Shown: in pieces, positions 2,994 through 10,604 of the stretch
How the letters are laid out: each line of letters opens with the position of its first letter
How positions within the stretch are numbered: the first letter of the stretch is position 1
Source: a virus
Taxonomy: Duplodnaviria; Heunggongvirae; Uroviricota; Caudoviricetes
Reading direction: 5' to 3' (one strand)
Length of the DNA stretch: 12,156 bases
IMG/VR virus record: IMGVR_UViG_2802429247_000008
Location: 1-12,156 of that record
Notes under the pieces: generated by a model
The model's input: only the letters and a program-made list of their open reading frames with translations
Databases searched by the model: none
Told to the model about the DNA's origin: nothing
Program-made: the position numbers and the translations under genes

Positions 2994-3641
2994 ATGATGG
3001 AAAGCCTTGGCATCAGGCTTAAGAAACTCAGAAAAGATAAGGGACTCACCCAAGTAGAACTGGGTAAGCTTTCAGGCGTGACTGGGGTTACTATAGGGTA
3101 CTGGGAGAAAGATCTAAACGAACCCGGCAGCAAAGCTCTAAGTAAGTTAGCCCAAGCATTAGGAACTACTGAGTCCTATCTCCTGTATGGAGTATCGTCT
3201 CCTGAACTATCTTTTGTGCAGAGCAATCCAGGCACCAAGATCCCCTACTTTTCGTGGGGTGACGCGATTTCTTTCCTAATCTTAGAAGGAGAGAAAACAA
3301 TGGGAAATGTCGATAGGATCACCACATTCTTTGATGTAGTGGAAGGTGATTTTGCCGTTTCAATGCCTGATGACACTATGCATAACCCCTCAGGGTCGCC
3401 AAGTATCCCAGTTGGTGCCACTGTGATCCTAAGACCAGGAGAAAGTTATAAAAATGGCAGTATCGTCGCTGTAATAGTTCCAGATCCTCTTACAAATGAA
3501 CCGTCTATGACTATAAAAAAATTAGTTATTGATGGAAAACTTGTGTATTTAAGCCCTCTCAATCCGCGCTATCAATCATCCTTGCTTACGCCAGAGTGTA
3601 AAATTGTTGCCGTAGCAAAAGGTGTACAGTTCAACCTATAA
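2994..3641 (+). CDS. cI/LexA-like prophage repressor (N-terminal XRE HTH, C-terminal S24 peptidase domain)
   Basis: 215 aa. HTH at LTQVELGKLSGVTGVTIGYWEKDLNEP. C-terminal VEGDFAVSMPDD (Ser of the catalytic dyad) and MTIKKLVIDGKLVYLSPLNPRY (Lys of the dyad), closely resembling lambda cI [22 protein letters not shown]. Two tandem ATGs at 2994 and 2997. Confidence 0.85.
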   Translation: MMESLGIRLKKLRKDKGLTQVELGKLSGVTGVTIGYWEKDLNEPGSKALSKLAQALGTTESYLLYGVSSPELSFVQSNPGTKIPYFSWGDAISFLILEGEKTMGNVDRITTFFDVVEGDFAVSMPDDTMHNPSGSPSIPVGATVILRPGESYKNGSIVAVIVPDPLTNEPSMTIKKLVIDGKLVYLSPLNPRYQSSLLTPECKIVAVAKGVQFNL

Positions 3642-3663
3642 CCCTGCCATGTTCTTGAACTTA

Positions 3664-3690
3664 AGGTCGGTTATGCCGACCTTTTTTTTA
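3664..3690 (+). terminator. Rho-independent terminator downstream of the repressor gene
   Basis: Stem GGTCGG (3665-3670) and CCGACC (3676-3681) around a 5-nt loop, followed immediately by an 8-T run (3682-3689). Confidence 0.7.
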
Positions 3691-3708
3691 AATTAATTTA
3701 GATTCCTC

Positions 3709-3737
3709 TTGACTATAAAACTAAATACTTTTAGATT
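3709..3737 (+). promoter_or_regulatory. pL-like promoter with overlapping operator-like site (OL-like)
   Basis: -35 TTGACT (3709-3714), 17-bp spacer, -10 TAGATT (3732-3737). The 20-mer AAACTAAATACTTTTAGATT (3718-3737) matches the OR palindrome at 17 of 20 positions. An extra TTAGATT at 3698-3704. Confidence 0.45.
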
Positions 3738-3908
3738 TATTGCATGCCAACCCATCCCGTCCCCACAGAATGCAGGGCAATACTTCGAGTTACCAGGCAG
3801 TGGTCAGGGGTTAAGTAGCCAGCCCGAGGCGTATGAACATGACGGCGGGATTCAAATTTTGCAGTGCAGCAGTTAGTTCCGCCACCCGGCGTTAAGGGGA
3901 GAGATAAG

Positions 3909-4043
3909 ATGGTGCATTACGAAGTAGTTCAGTATTTGATGGATTGTTGCGGTATCACTTACAACCAGGCTGTGCAGGCTTTACGCAGCAACGACTGGGA
4001 TCTCTGGCAGGCAGAAGTCGCTATACGTAGCAACAAGATGTGA
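3909..4043 (+). CDS. ydaG: YdaG-like small protein (44 aa)
   Basis: ATG at 3909 preceded by GGGGAGAG. Product MVHYEVVQYLMDCCGITYNQAVQALRSNDWDLWQAEVAIRSNKM. Size and position (between repressor and ydaF/sieB) match Rac ydaG. Below the length cutoff of the supplied ORF track. Confidence 0.62.
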   Translation: MVHYEVVQYLMDCCGITYNQAVQALRSNDWDLWQAEVAIRSNKM

Positions 4044-4053
4044 GATTCGCAAA

Positions 4054-4209
4054 ATGCAAAAAATCGACCTCGGCAACAACGAATCCCTGGTGTGCGGCGT
4101 GTTCCCCAACCAGGATGGAACGTTCACTGCCATGACGTATACCAAAAGCAAAACATTTAAAACCGAAACTGGTGCGCGCCGATGGTTGGAGAAGCACACA
4201 GTAAGCTAA
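4054..4209 (+). CDS. ydaF: YdaF-like small protein (DUF1391, 51 aa)
   Basis: ATG at 4054. Product MQKIDLGNNESLVCGVFPNQDGTFTAMTYTKSKTFKTETGARRWLEKHTVS. Matches my recollection of Rac YdaF in size and position. Its stop overlaps the sieB stop convergently. Confidence 0.65.
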   Translation: MQKIDLGNNESLVCGVFPNQDGTFTAMTYTKSKTFKTETGARRWLEKHTVS

Positions 4210-4694
4210 CGATTAAAACGTCTACTCCTGCTGTTCCAGAATAACTTCATAAAATGGGAGTATTTTTCGGTGACGAGATAATAAGAACAGTTTGCGCTAT
4301 CACTCTGATGTTGAATGATGCCCTTCCGTTCTAATTTTTTCATAACCGGGTTACGGCAAGGAGAAGTGATAATAAGATTTCCTGTTTTAAGGAAATCTTT
4401 AAATACAGCGATTTCTTTCTCAGATAAACGAAGCAATACTCGTTGCTCTGGTAGTAATGAATAATGCTTTTGAATATGTGCTCGCAATCTTGAGAAGGAA
4501 ATGGCGACCACGAAAGAAAAGGCAAAAACGATAATCTGAAAGAGCCAAGATATTTCAGTATAAGCATTGAATGCGACAGTAAACTCTTTCGGTATCAGCC
4601 AGAGAGTGAGACCAAAAATGATAATCGTATACATAAGTCTTTCGAGTGGCTCGTTAGCAAAAAGTTTCAACAATGGAGTAAATACATCCAACAT
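4206..4694 (-). CDS. sieB: Superinfection exclusion protein B
   Basis: 162-aa product from ATG at 4692-4694 (MLDVFTPLLKLFANEPLERLMYTIIIFGLTLWLIP...), with hydrophobic membrane segments. The supplied ORF extends 41 codons further upstream to 4817, but that extension looks non-coding. Confidence 0.8.
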   Translation of the reverse strand: MLDVFTPLLKLFANEPLERLMYTIIIFGLTLWLIPKEFTVAFNAYTEISWLFQIIVFAFSFVVAISFSRLRAHIQKHYSLLPEQRVLLRLSEKEIAVFKDFLKTGNLIITSPCRNPVMKKLERKGIIQHQSDSANCSYYLVTEKYSHFMKLFWNSRSRRFNR

Positions 4695-4912
4695 ATCAAT
4701 AACTCTCAACTGTAAGGGTATTGAAATGTTAACACAAGCTCTCGCTGTAGGGGTATAGCCGAGACCACCGAAGCCCGGAGGTGGTGAAATAAAACCGGGC
4801 ACAACACGAAGGCGCATTTCCGATATCCATAAAGAGTCGGTCTTGTCTGTTAAATTTAAATGGTGGGAGTGCGCCTCCGGTTGTAAATAACGACATTGCT
4901 GTGTGTAGTCCT

Positions 4913-4960
4913 GGCGGCATCAGTTTTTTTCTTGAAGTTCGGCTGATGTCCGCCCTTTTT
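4913..4960 (+). terminator. Terminator-like hairpin plus T-run in the sieB/kilR divergent intergenic region
   Basis: Stem GGCGGCATCAG (4913-4923) pairs with CTGATG(T)CCGCC (4943-4954) with one bulge, followed by CTTTTT (4955-4960). The 19-nt loop is large for an intrinsic terminator, so confidence is low. Confidence 0.3.
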
Positions 4961-5135
4961 AAAGTGAATTTTGTGATGCGGTGAATGCGGCTAAGCGCAC
5001 GTGGCACAGTTAAAAGTCATGTTAGTCCTTATTGGTTTGGGTGGGAAAGCCGACTGTAATTGTTAACTGGTTGCAGTCACCTGGAGGCACCAGGCACCGC
5101 ATCAACAAAGTTCATTTGTAAAAATGGAGATAATT

Positions 5136-5357
5136 ATGATTGCACATCACTTCGGAACTGATGAAATACCACGTCAGTGTGTGACTCCTGGCGATTATGT
5201 TCTTCATGAAGGCCGGACATATATTGCCTCGGCAAACAATATTAAAAAGCGAAAACTATATATTCGTAACCTGACCACAAAAACATGCATTACTGACTGC
5301 ATGATTAAAGTTTTCCTCGGTCGTGATGGTTTACCTGTAAAGGCGGAATCATGGTGA
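5136..5357 (+). CDS. kilR: KilR-like killing / cell-division inhibitor protein (73 aa)
   Basis: ATG at 5136 with GGAG 6 nt upstream; the supplied ORF starts 4 codons earlier at 5124 with no SD. Product [35 protein letters not shown].... Position between sieB and ydaE matches Rac kilR. Sequence identity is from memory only. Confidence 0.6.
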
Positions 5358-5527
5358 TGACTAAGAAAATAAAATGTGCTTACCACCTTTGCAATAAAGG
5401 GGTTGAAGAAAGCAAAAGCATTAAAAGACCACTTCATTTCATGCGTGGAGTTATACCAACGACGGAAATGAAAAAATATTGTAGTGAAATCTGTGCCGAA
5501 AAAGACAAGATGGCACACGAACTTTAA
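5357..5527 (+). CDS. ydaE: YdaE-like small Cys-rich (zinc-binding) protein, 56 aa
   Basis: ATG at 5357 overlaps the kilR stop (ATGA). Product [56 protein letters not shown] carries C-x4-C ... C-x3-C. Below the ORF-track length cutoff. Confidence 0.62.
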   Translation: MTKKIKCAYHLCNKGVEESKSIKRPLHFMRGVIPTTEMKKYCSEICAEKDKMAHEL

Positions 5528-5601
5528 TTAACTGACTATGCGAAACTGAATTCATGCCAGCAATGGCAGGGATTCGCTCAACCTTAATTAAGGAGAAAAA
5601 C

Positions 5602-5877
5602 ATGATTACTAATTATGAAACCACTATTGTAACTACTGATGACATTGTTCACGAGGTTAATCTGGAAGGAAAGCGTATTGGCTACGTGATTAAAACAGAA
5701 AATAAAGAAACCCCATTCACTGTAGTTGATATCGACGGTCCATCAGGCAACGTTAAAACACTTCACGAAGGTGTCAAAAAAATGAGCCTGGTGCATATCG
5801 GAAAGAATCTGCCCACAGAAAAAAAAGCCGAATTTCTGGCAACTCTGATTGCAATGAAATTAAAAGGTGAAATCTGA
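5602..5877 (+). CDS. racC: RacC-like protein (91 aa)
   Basis: ATG at 5602 with AGGAG 6 nt upstream; the supplied ORF starts at 5554 with no SD. Product MITNYETTIVTTDDIVHEVNLEGKRIGYVIKTENKETPF.... Lies immediately upstream of recE, as in Rac. Confidence 0.6.
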   Translation: MITNYETTIVTTDDIVHEVNLEGKRIGYVIKTENKETPFTVVDIDGPSGNVKTLHEGVKKMSLVHIGKNLPTEKKAEFLATLIAMKLKGEI

Positions 5878-5882
5878 AAGAA

Positions 5883-5907
5883 ATAGCCTGCGTATGGCGC
5901 AGGCTAT
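5883..5907. repeat. Perfect 10-bp inverted repeat between racC and recE
   Basis: ATAGCCTGCG (5883-5892) and CGCAGGCTAT (5898-5907) around a 5-nt loop. No downstream T-run on the plus strand, so not a canonical intrinsic terminator. Confidence 0.5.
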
Positions 5908-5978
5908 GAACAGTGTGTATCCGGCAAGATCATTCACTGAACAAAACGAATTTTAATCTGAGTTGAGGTTAAAAAACA

Positions 5979-8900
5979 ATGAGCACAAAACCACTCTTCC
6001 TGTTACGGAAAGCGAAAAAATCATCCGGTGAACCTGACGTCGTCCTGTGGGCAAGCGACGATTTTGAATCGACCTGTGCCACTCTGGACTACCTGATCGT
6101 TAAGTCAGGTAAAAAACTGAGCAGCTATTTTAAAGCTGTTGCCACGAATTTTCCTGTCGTTAATGACCTGCCCCCTGAAGGTGAGATCGATTTTACCTGG
6201 AGTGAACGCTATCAACTCAGCAAAGACTCCATGACCTGGGAACTAAAATCGGGAGCAGCGCCAGACGACGTTCACCATCAGGAGAATGCTCAGGAAACCG
6301 AAGAACTGACGGGAGGGCAGGAAGAAAACACACTGGCAGACGCTCACGGGGATTGCCAGGATTGCGAAGTTTCTGTATCTACTTTGCGGTTCACACAGCG
6401 TCTTCTGCACATTTTTACCTATGCGGCCGGGGATCGGAAATACCTGCATCATGCCACCCGAGAACAACGCGAACACATTACTGCTCTTGAGATGGATCAG
6501 GAAAACAGCTATGTCCAGAATCTGCTGTTGGCCATACGCGGCATGGCAGAACCGACAACTCTGGATAATGCCGCCCTGCTCCGCCTGACTGATGCAATTA
6601 AGGGGGTTTTCTCTATCACGAAAAAACATCAGCCCTATGAATTTAAGAATTTCATTTCAGCCTGGCTGGATACCGAACACATTGATCGCGGTCTTCTGAC
6701 AAAAGAATGGCGAAAAGGGAATCGTGTTTCACGCATCACTCGCACGGCTTCCGGTGCTAATGCTGGCGGCGGGAACCTCACCGATCGCGGCGAAGGTTTC
6801 GTCCACGATCTGACGTCACTGGCGCGCGATGTAGCCACTGGCGTACTGGCCCGTTCAATGGACGTGGACATCTATAACCTTCATCCGGCACACGCTAAAC
6901 GCATTGAGGAAATTATCGCTGAAAATAAACCGCCCTTTTCTGTTTTCCGCGACAAATTCATCACCATGCCTGGCGGGCTGGATTATTCACGCGCCATCGT
7001 GGTTGCGTCCGTGAAAGAAGCACCAATTGGGATCGAGGTCATCCCCGCGCACGTCACTGAATATCTGAACAAAGTACTGACTGAAACCGATCATGCCAAC
7101 CCTGATCCGGAAATCGTGGATATTGCCTGCGGTCGCTCCTCTGCCCCGATGCCGCAGCGTGTAACAGAAGAAGGAAAACAGGATGATGAAGAAAAACCGC
7201 AACCATCTGAAACAACGGCAGATGAACAGGGAGAGGCTGAAACAATGGAACCGGACGCAACTGAACATCATCAGGACACGCAGCCGCTGGATGCTCAGTC
7301 ACAGGTAAATTCTGTTGATGCGAAATATCAGGAACTGCGGGCAGAACTCCATGAAGCCCGGAAAAACATTCCATCAAAAAATCCTGTCGATGCCGATAAA
7401 TTGCTTGCTGCATCACGTGGTGAATTTGTTGACGGAATTAGCGACCCGAACGATCCGAAATGGGTTAAGGGGATCCAGACTCGCGATTCTGTGTACCAGA
7501 ACCAGCCAGAAACGGAAAAAACCAGCCCGGATGTGAAACAACCTGAGGCAGTAGTGCAACAGGAACCGGAAATAGTCTGCAATGCCTGCGGTCAGACTGG
7601 CGGAGATAACTGCCCTGACTGTGGGGCGGTGACGGGCGACGCAACATACCAGGAAACATTCGATGAAGAGAATCAGGTTGAAGCTAAGGAAAAAGATCCG
7701 GTGGAAATGGAAGGCGCTGAACATCCGCACAATGAGAATGCTGGCAGCGATCCGCATCGTGATTGCAGTGATGAAACTGGTGAAGCGTCAGCTCCTGTAG
7801 CAACTGAAATCATGTGGCCGTCATATTTCGAGCCTGGCCGCTATGAAAACCTCCCGAACGAGGTTTATCACTCCGCCAACGGAATAAGCAGCACGATGCT
7901 GAAGGATGCCCGTATCAGCCTGATGTATTACCACGGACGGCACATTGCCGGAACTATTCCGAACGAGGAAAGTGATGCACTGCTGCGTGGGCGGATCATT
8001 CACAGCTATGTTCTGGAAACGGATAAATTCGCTGATGAATATGCCATTCCGGTACCGGTTCCTGAATATGTGGTTACTACTTCTAGCGAACTGATCGCCA
8101 TCATTAAAAAACACAATGCCAGTCTGCCAGCACTGATGACACCAGAGCAGATGAAAGAGTGGATCGAAAGCTACAACAGCACTCTTATACAGCCACTGTC
8201 TGTAAGTGCCGGGGCCGAAGAAACAGGCATCCTTTACGGTTCGCTTCCGGTGGAATTTCGGCGTATTCCTGAGGGGGAAAAACACACAGCATCAGCAATG
8301 AAAGCCTGTATTAAAGAATACAACGCAAGCCTCCCTCCTCTGTTGAAAACCAGTGGAGCACGGGAGCAGCTTCTGGATCAAATTGAAACTGTAGACCCAG
8401 AACTGGCAAAAAAAGAACGTGCTAAATCTTTGCCTTACAACATCAGTGGCACAAAAGAGCAATTAACCGAAATCGCACGGAAAATTCGCCCGGAACTGGT
8501 GACACTGGAGGACTGGCAAAAACGCCAGCAAGAAGAAAATGCCGGGAAAACGTTTATCAGTCCGGAGATGTATGAACAGGCAAAAAATATTCACGCGGCA
8601 CTGCAAAACAATACCGATGCAGCAAGGCTACTCAACCACCCGGATCGCAAATCTGAAATCAGCTATTTCGGGTTTGATGAAGAAACCGGGCTGGAAATCA
8701 GGGTCCGTCCTGATATCGAAATCCGGCTGCCATACGAAAGCATTTGCGCTGACGTGAAGTCAGTCAGCCTCGGTTATGTGCGACAGGAACGACTTAAAGA
8801 TCGCCTGCACCGTGAAATTATTGAGCGTGATTATCACCTCAGCGCCGCAATGTATTGCGATGTGGCAAACCTGGACAAATTTTTCTGGATCTTCGTCAAC

Positions 8901-10213: not shown

Positions 10214-10228
10214 ATGAGAGAAAAGACA

Positions 10229-10423
10229 ATGCGGTATGAAAAAGTCAAACCATGCCCTTTTTGTGGTTGTCCATCAGTAACGGTGAAAGCCATTTCAGGA
10301 TATTACCGCGCGAAGTGTAACGGATGCGAATCCCGAACCGGCTATGGTGGAAGTGAAAAAGAAGCACTCGAACGATGGAATAAACGAACCACTGGAAATA
10401 ATAATGGAGGTGTTCATGTATAA
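10229..10423 (+). CDS. ralR: Restriction alleviation protein (Lar/RalR family), 64 aa
   Basis: Product MRYEKVKPCPFCGCPSVTVKAISGYYRAKCNGCESRTGYGGSEKEALERWNKRT has the CPFCG ... CNGC zinc-ribbon typical of Lar. The supplied ORF starts 5 codons upstream at 10214; the ATG at 10229 is chosen by homology. Confidence 0.8.
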   Translation: MRYEKVKPCPFCGCPSVTVKAISGYYRAKCNGCESRTGYGGSEKEALERWNKRTTGNNNGGVHV

Positions 10424-10604
10424 AATTACCGCCACTATTGAAAAGGAAGGTGGCACTCCTACTAACTGGACAAGGTACTCAAAAACAAAATTAACCAAAT
10501 CAGAATGCGAAAAAATGCTCTCAGGTAAAAAAGAAGCAGGCGTTTCCAGAGAGCAGAAAGTAAAACTGATAAATTTTAATTGCGAGCAACTTCAGTCCTC
10601 GTGA
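10416..10604 (+). CDS. ydaC: YdaC-like protein (DUF1187), 62 aa
   Basis: ATG at 10416 with GGAGG 5 nt upstream; overlaps the ralR 3' end by 8 nt. Product MYKITATIEKEGGTPTNWTRYSKTKLTKSECEKMLSGKKEAGVSREQKVKLINFNCEQLQSS. The supplied ORF 10344-10604 carries an N-terminal extension I consider spurious. Confidence 0.62.
   Translation: MYKITATIEKEGGTPTNWTRYSKTKLTKSECEKMLSGKKEAGVSREQKVKLINFNCEQLQSS

Follow-up and report, generated by a model that had tools for sequence, protein, structure and literature searches.

A predicted structured RNA domain opens the early-left leader of Rac-like lambdoid prophages

The first ~105 nt of the untranslated leader that precedes the early-left genes of a Rac-like lambdoid prophage are, on comparative grounds, very probably a conserved structured RNA, and this RNA, termed the core below, apparently belongs to a widespread and undescribed cis-RNA family. 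The domain is predicted to comprise an irregular hairpin, P1, with a fixed apical stem, a closing helix, P0, whose sequence varies between lineages, and ~35 invariant junction nucleotides between the two. The window referred to throughout is the whole stretch of DNA that was analysed, 12,156 nt in length, and it is a Rac-like lambdoid prophage. An earlier note on this DNA had suggested that the leader might hold an RNA structure, and the hairpin-plus-junction domain, with its many compensatory base changes, bears the suggestion out. Literature searches on the spacer between racR and ydaG, on the leader of the dicB operon, and on put-like RNAs in Rac turned up no account of the element; King et al. 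2011, on new put RNAs, lay outside that coverage.

The leader is situated between an immunity region and the early-left operon, in the following setting.

2994-3641: cI-like repressor gene, with HTH_3 and Peptidase_S24 domains (Pfam)
3663-3690, + strand: intrinsic terminator of the cI-like gene (terminator scan; 9-bp stem, then a T-run)
3689-3737, + strand: pL-type sigma-70 promoter (promoter scan; TTGACT-17-TAGATT at 3709-3737)
3909-4043, + strand: ydaG-like gene, 44 aa (Pfam UBA_4), 97% identical to K-12 Rac
4054-4209, + strand: ydaF-like gene, DUF1391 (Pfam), 97% identical to K-12 Rac
4863-4960, + strand: KilS sRNA homologue (K-12 kilS annotation mapped by alignment)
4913-4954 (stem) and 4956-4960 (U-run), + strand: KilS intrinsic terminator, between sieB and kilR

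The early-left control region is bounded upstream by the terminator at 3663-3690, directly after which comes the promoter, with a -35 element TTGACT at 3709-3714 and a -10 element TAGATT at 3732-3737. Two operator-like palindromes lie over the promoter (3689-3705 and 3718-3737), and related palindromes are found in the cro/cI intergenic region (2911-2930 and 2959-2977). All four are of the ATCTAAA..TTTAGAT type and are probably repressor operators at pR/pRM and at pL. Since the pL palindromes recur in the cro/cI region, we take the promoter at 3709-3737 to be a repressor-controlled, early-left promoter of the pL type.

Transcription is predicted to start near A3744, 7 nt past the -10 hexamer, and the ATG of the ydaG-like gene is at 3909, giving a leader of ~165 nt (3744-3908). 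The ~170-nt untranslated leader proposed earlier, running from a pL-like promoter to the first early-left gene at 3738-3908, was thus right to within a few bases. The leader is also GC-rich relative to its surroundings, as had been remarked, with a GC content of 0.50-0.52 compared to 0.37-0.39 on both flanks (200-nt windows), and that of the conserved core is 0.58. We likewise found no convincing ORF in the leader: a 24-codon frame does run from ATG 3744 to TAG 3813-3815, as noted before, but it is not conserved, because other copies start with AUA or AUC. The sole plus-strand ORF of at least 40 aa across the leader (3709-3876) starts inside the -35 box, and no minus-strand ORF of at least 40 aa overlaps the leader.

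Conservation of the leader was one point on which the earlier reading could have fallen. The leader is kept as a unit across genera and has matches in 3767 of 5426 complete E. coli genomes (~70%; 3528 by megablast). These matches begin at window positions 3742-3762 and end at ~3900 irrespective of what flanks them. The repressors encoded upstream of leader copies vary (RacR, DicA-like, LexA-like, and others, with a RelE module inserted in some), as do the genes downstream (ydaG, DUF1391/ydfA-ydfB-ydfC-dicF-dicB, and others). Window positions 3742-6280 are 97% identical to Rac of K-12, with identity beginning exactly at the 5' end of the leader; upstream of 3742 the immunity region is another module, encoding the cI-like S24 repressor and not RacR. 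This places a mosaic joint at the transcription start. The mosaic boundaries, at 3742-3747 and at ~3900 (at the RBS of the first gene), define the leader, as far as sequence comparison goes, as a separate mosaic module that is independent of both flanks. Rac of K-12 has a copy of the core, and the K-12 reference annotation is empty between racR and ydaG.

More distant copies were recovered with an 18-nt leader pattern followed by covariance-model searches. The first ~105 nt were also found in Serratia, Pectobacterium, Superficieibacter, Escherichia ruysiae, and Shigella, and many core copies are present in the genomes of Symbiopectobacterium, Arsenophonus, and Phlomobacter, as well as in more than 100 IMG/VR contigs. 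In every lineage conservation starts at the CAT start motif, directly past promoter sequence that is not homologous. The core model, R1, gave 65 matches in 60 loci from at least seven genera, and a single match in the window (3744-3848, 113.8 bits). The core is also kept in inducible phages, namely Tritos, Evi, and the vB_Eco isolates.

Three further records deserve mention as to their origin. Phage vB_Apl-pPE4 encodes a DicA-like repressor, YdaT, Kil, and exonuclease VIII, and carries the core at 77% identity; its early region resembles that of an enterobacterial Rac-type prophage, and its stated host, Actinobacillus pleuropneumoniae, seems odd. A Nanosynbacter MAG and a Collinsella MAG contain Rac-type leaders scoring as high as genuine E. 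coli copies, which are most likely the result of bin contamination.

The elements of the leader, as positioned in the window, are these.

3744-3852, + strand: conserved structured RNA core, from the inferred +1 through the 3' strand of P0
3749-3753, + strand: 5' strand of P0, AACCC, pairing with GGAUU 3848-3852; four of the five pairs form here
3754-3811, + strand: P1, a long three-tier hairpin drawn from comparative covariation
3754-3758 with 3807-3811, + strand: P1a
3763-3766 with 3800-3803, + strand: P1b
3771-3777 with 3793-3799, + strand: P1c
3779-3781 with 3789-3791, + strand: apical stem, AAU/GUU
3778-3792, + strand: invariant cap, CAAUAC-NNN-GAGUUA
3812-3830, + strand: junction block UAAGUAGCCAGCCCGAGGC, invariant or nearly so in 64 distinct sequences
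3818-3820 with 3828-3830, + strand: candidate 3-bp hairpin P2, GCC with GGC, inside the junction block
3826-3829, + strand: GAGG, a possible Shine-Dalgarno sequence
3835-3846, + strand: invariant block GAACAUGACGGC with a conserved AUG at 3839-3841
3853-3908, + strand: 3' half of the leader, with GCAGCAG, GUUCCGCC (3876-3883), P4, and the RBS
3885-3887 with 3896-3898, + strand: hairpin P4, CCC with GGG, loop GGCGUUAA
3896-3903, + strand: RBS of the first gene, GGGGAGAG

Across lineages, the consensus of the junction block is UAAGUAGCCAGCCYGAGGC, and that of the block at 3835-3846 is GAACAUGAMGGC. The bases of these blocks almost never vary, so P2 and the other small pairings within them lie beyond verification by covariation.

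The evidence for the fold is comparative. Minimum free energy (MFE) folds of 32 diverse copies gave the same three-tier hairpin from differing sequences, with stem variants such as CCAC/GUGG, GCAU/AUGC, GGCAGAA/UUCUGCC, GGCAAU/AUUGCC, and GGCAAA/UUUGCC. The proposed pairs were then scored on three alignments, each compared to controls in which the structure was slid along the sequence.

Alignment A3 (MAFFT only, co-linear, 14 sequences): paired 82%, slid controls 27-43%, 11 pairs changed on both sides
Alignment A8 (MAFFT only, 18 sequences from four lineages, P0 included): paired 81.6%, slid controls 26-42%, 18 of 29 pairs changed on both sides
Alignment A5 (fitted to R1, 64 distinct sequences): paired 87.4%, slid controls 24-43%, 16 of 22 pairs changed on both sides

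The covariation score on A5 was 0.372 compared to 0.123 in shuffles, and none of 500 shuffles reached the observed value. G-U pairs are confined to the + strand, indicative of an RNA in the sense of the operon. The earlier note had advised structure prediction together with covariation analysis, and the two parts fared differently. Covariation across related prophages supported the structure, but the single-sequence fold of the window copy was no better than those of shuffled sequences (z = -0.89 and +0.81), so that the structural evidence is comparative only. When the window, Tritos, and Pectobacterium copies were folded singly, only that of Pectobacterium reached the consensus, marginally beyond shuffles (z = -1.8). 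P1 and P0 contain several mismatches in the E. coli copies, whose MFE fold departs from the consensus. In a plain MAFFT alignment of all lineages the arms of P1 were misaligned, so that RNAalifold overlooked this hairpin and yielded invariant pairings alone (GUUAC with GUAGC, for example); the scoring therefore relied on structures defined by hand, applied to co-linear alignments, and on alignment to a covariance model.

P0 would join nucleotides 6-10 of the transcript to the bases directly past GACGGC-N. Other lineages offer clearly compensatory pairs at this place, namely AACCC/GGGUU, CAGCAAC/GUUGCUG or GUUGUUG, AACAAC/GUUGUU, CCAACC/GGUUGG, and UCACU/AGUGA. On A8, double changes occur in six of the seven P0 pairs, with only 57% of cells paired, and the helix is weak in the subtype of the window and in Serratia. 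We consider it probable that this closing helix is real.

The 3' half of the leader is a module of its own, common to leaders of the Enterobacteriaceae type. Its hairpin P4 has compensatory variants (CCGC/GCGG, GCCG/CGGC, GCC/GGC, and GCCAG/CUGGC). RNAalifold predicted in addition a long-range helix of GGCG..GAAC in the core with GUUCCGCC, for which the support consists of invariant positions or one-sided changes. We regard this helix as tentative, since its changes are one-sided only and GUUCCGCY persists without a partner in Qin. The dicBF leader of K-12 Qin, in the dicA-ydfA spacer (L185 2434-2508), shares with the window the promoter type, the 5' AUCAAC start, and the 3' half CAG..GUUCCGCUACCCC.GCGUUAAGGGG before ydfA. 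In contrast to the window, it is a natural deletion or replacement variant of the core, as it is without the ~100-nt core and has instead a small hairpin, ACACCGCACGGUGU. This core-less form was found in 1030 of the 5426 E. coli genomes (at least 80% coverage).

No match to known RNA families was detected for the element. The + strand of the leader matched nothing in Rfam 15 at E values up to 10, nor did four core copies (L151, L135, L137, and L160) at E values up to 1, and a tRNA/tmRNA scan gave none. The sole match at gathering score in the window is the RalA antitoxin sRNA (RF02694, 215 bits), on the - strand at 10422-10600; it abuts the downstream end of a ralR-like ORF at 10214-10423 on the + strand, and together they make up the type I toxin-antitoxin system of Rac.

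The put RNAs of HK022 and HK639 offer a close parallel. They are cis-acting structured RNAs at the very start of the pL transcript in an N-less lambdoid phage, and they bring about terminator read-through unaided by phage proteins, an activity blocked by mutations in the beta' zinc-binding domain; the core, a putative cis-acting RNA, occupies the same position, starting at the inferred +1 just downstream of pL. Both have covarying stems and conserved loop or bulge nucleotides, both have motifs of the GAAC...CGGCA type (put has GAACGGC twice), and both stand where processive read-through is needed over many kb downstream. Residues C59-A64 of put contact the zinc-binding domain of the polymerase (PMC9378689). 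The two differ in architecture, since put consists of two adjacent stem-loops of ~70 nt in all, whereas the core is one ~22-bp hairpin with a closed junction, ~105 nt. HK022 also has putR behind pR, whereas the core is a single copy in the 12-kb window, including the operon on the cro/cII side. A further difference is that some phages have the core alongside nut and N.

We then compared the two families directly. A put model, R2, was built from six sequences (HK022 putL and putR, HK639, phiEt88, CobraSix, and S9-5), and scored 94 bits on HK022 putL, 54 on putR, and 92 on HK639. It found no match in the leader of the window or in those of 14 further loci that carry the core; an unfiltered search of window positions 3600-4100 reached at most 2.3 bits, on the wrong strand. 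Conversely, the core model R1 had no match in HK022. With R2 blank on 15 core-bearing loci and R1 blank on HK022, we rejected the core as a put homologue.

The nutL sites of lambda and P22 have the same place in the genome as the core, between pL and the first early-left gene. Nut-like elements had not been recognized in the leader before, and in agreement with this no boxA (CGCTCTTA / YGCTCTTWA, up to one mismatch) was found within 3738-3908; elsewhere in the window matches were at chance level. P4 sits at the position of boxB. A boxB hairpin has a 5-bp stem and a purine-rich, GNRA-like pentaloop, whereas P4 of the window, CCC[GGCGUUAA]GGG, has a 3-bp stem and an 8-nt loop; the Serratia version, GCCG[GAAAGA]CGGC, is more boxB-like. 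No N-like protein is encoded downstream in the window, where the first products are YdaG (UBA-like) and a DUF1391 protein. A nut site in the window leader was rejected, as neither a boxA nor a following N-like protein is present. For its part, lambda has no counterpart of the core.

In prophages of Arsenophonus (L160 4370-5007 and 7054-7706) and Symbiopectobacterium (L137 3861-4755), a canonical boxA, boxB, and boxC take the place of the 3' half, in the form of CGCTCTTTAAC, a hairpin of the CGCUGAAAAAGCG type, and GGGGUGUG past the core. The 5' end (AUCAAC.. or AUCAAG..) and the AUGAAGG before boxA are similar to those of the lambda pL leader. An N-like protein with an arginine-rich motif was found past the core only in the Arsenophonus locus L160. 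In the Symbiopectobacterium locus L137 the lambda cIII thermoregulator (RF01804) lies further downstream, and in some Symbiopectobacterium copies a gene follows directly 3' of the core. It is common for an Arsenophonus contig to have two core-bearing immunity regions, at a distance of 1.8-2.7 kb from each other. The core thus stands before a nut site, a 3' half of the E. coli type, or a gene, in keeping with a general 5' module of pL leaders and not simply a substitute for nut.

Transcription from pL meets several obstacles downstream. Past the ydaF-like gene, the order is sieB (on the opposite strand), the KilS homologue, kilR (5124-5357), recE, and later RalA/ralR. Some 600 nt of the operon transcript are antisense to sieB before KilS is reached. 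Because sieB is on the other strand, ~900 nt of the + strand (4206-5123) are without a sense ORF, an obvious place for Rho action. Published work places the end of KilS at a terminator within the leader of kilR (PMC8175672); a simple terminator scan of the window missed this terminator, which was recovered by way of the K-12 annotation. The KilS homologue is the first barrier to a transcript begun at 3744. Relatives of the Qin type have the DicF terminator in the operon.

In our favored reading, which we hold as a possibility short of an even chance, the core would work in cis as an RNA that renders the polymerase transcribing it refractory to termination, put-like in action and not a put homologue. 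Somewhat more tentatively still, it may constitute a second, structurally unrelated class of polymerase-modifying RNA, either a processive antiterminator or an anti-Rho element. The core would fold on leaving RNA polymerase and influence in cis the very elongation complex that made it, by way of a host component that all Enterobacterales share, be it RNA polymerase itself, a Nus factor, or Rho. Polymerase from pL could then cross the sieB-antisense stretch and the KilS terminator (DicF in the Qin type) and proceed into kilR-recET-xis-int. Both the logic and the position would be those of the put RNAs of HK022.

Several observations count in favor of antitermination. From E. coli to Arsenophonus, and in front of unrelated gene sets, the bases of the loop and junction do not vary, which points to a conserved host machine and not to a phage protein as the partner. 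Conservation runs from the predicted +1 independently of the flanks, and the prophage, which has neither N nor nut, must contend with ~900 nt free of sense ORFs and with the KilS terminator. In Rac, transcription extends to kilR only upon weakening of NusG-dependent termination (PMC5793797), and in K-12 Qin, which lacks the core, no transcript beyond ydfABC-dicF was detected (bioRxiv 10.1101/2023.04.14.536235); both fit this reading. Retention of the core by inducible phages counts in the same direction.

Other observations count against antitermination. There is no homology to put, and the single copy leaves the rightward operon with none. Where the core precedes a nut site in Arsenophonus and Symbiopectobacterium, with an N-like protein in L160, there would seem to be little need for another antiterminator. 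Several mismatches interrupt P1 and P0 in the E. coli copies, whose MFE folds do not reach the consensus. Finally, K-12 Rac has the core, yet its kilR is silenced by Rho/NusG, an argument weakened by the uncertain origin of those transcripts.

The core might alternatively govern processing or stability, with P1 as an RNase III site, or with the domain shielding the 5' end, and thereby set mRNA half-life and translation; we think this unlikely. An RNase III site in the N leader of lambda sets the half-life and translation of the early-left mRNA. Like P1, that site is a long interrupted hairpin in an untranslated early-left leader, but its position is 3' of nutL and the helix alone defines it, whereas the core has invariant loop and junction sequences. 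P1, with ~22 interrupted base pairs, is long and coaxial with internal loops, and of the size of known RNase III substrates; RNase III recognition, however, needs none of the ~50 invariant loop and junction bases. In K-12 dicBF, ydfA-containing transcripts vanish in an rnc mutant (bioRxiv 10.1101/2023.04.14.536235), but the Qin leader showing this effect is without the core. As for shielding, the ~10 unpaired nucleotides before P1a (~5 if P0 forms) would give poor 5'-end protection.

A riboswitch-like or protein- or tRNA-binding sensor appears improbable, and we give the same low standing to its particular alternative pairings, P0 versus a downstream hairpin and P2 versus GUUCCGCC. In such a domain the closed junction would bind a ligand or factor and switch between these pairings, thereby controlling how Rho loads or how the first gene is translated when induction is decided. 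A multi-helix structure with an invariant junction would suit such a domain, as would the capacity of the 3' strand of P0 to pair downstream instead (GUUGUU with AACAA in L030) and the competing long-range helix predicted by RNAalifold. The lineages as a whole share neither a terminator nor an SD-sequestering helix, however, and the sequences past the core are wholly different (a nut site, a gene directly, or the E. coli-type 3' half); nor does any Rfam riboswitch score on the leader. The apical NNN was considered as a specifier or anticodon-like triplet and rejected, as it varies freely among near-identical E. coli copies. A search within the window for trans targets complementary to the apical loop or junction returned only the element itself.

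We also consider it very doubtful that the element serves as a leader ORF, in which GAGG-N9-AUG starts a short frame and the act of translation, and not the peptide, couples ribosomes or remodels the leader. The GAGG and AUG are kept at fixed spacing in 62 of 65 copies, though the AUG is lost in the other three. In the window the frame from AUG 3839 has 18 codons and ends at UAA 3893-3895; across the copies the ORF has anything between 4 and 78 codons, and indels put the subtypes out of frame with one another. Conservation of the peptide is limited to MTA or MKA, from codons within the 12-nt invariant RNA block, and the recurrent Val-Val is the GUUGUU of the 3' strand of P0. One E. coli subtype has the conserved AUG in frame with ydfA, and some records annotate a 78-aa protein, as in L002 2602-2838 (Tritos TRITO_32) and L004 2699-2935 (vB_EcoS-689R5), one of them named 'head-DNA stabilization protein D'. 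Such 78-aa proteins, drawn across the structured RNA, are probably mis-annotations.

That the leader is a conserved linker devoid of RNA function, maintained by recombination that swaps immunity and early-gene modules between lambdoid prophages, is hardly credible: mosaic boundaries do fall exactly at both leader ends, but compensatory changes preserve the helices while the sequence changes, for which a linker would not select, and G-U pairs are strand-specific.

Prophages of the Rac and Qin types are among the commonest passengers of E. coli and carry toxic or useful genes such as kilR, dicB/dicF, recET, and ralR. To our knowledge, no antitermination mechanism is known for the expression of these genes after derepression. 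The core sits exactly where lambda has nutL and HK022 has putL, and its presence in K-12 makes it directly testable. Should RNA polymerase prove to be its target, the core would be only the second class of phage RNA known to act in this way, carried by most E. coli strains, K-12 Rac included, and by prophages of insect and plant symbionts, and it would explain how kilR, recET, dicB, and xis-int are expressed in Rac- and Qin-type prophages that have no N. If it does not act on polymerase, it is still a widespread new cis-RNA family, one that merits an Rfam entry and that accounts for the spurious 78-aa 'proteins' in some records of this region.
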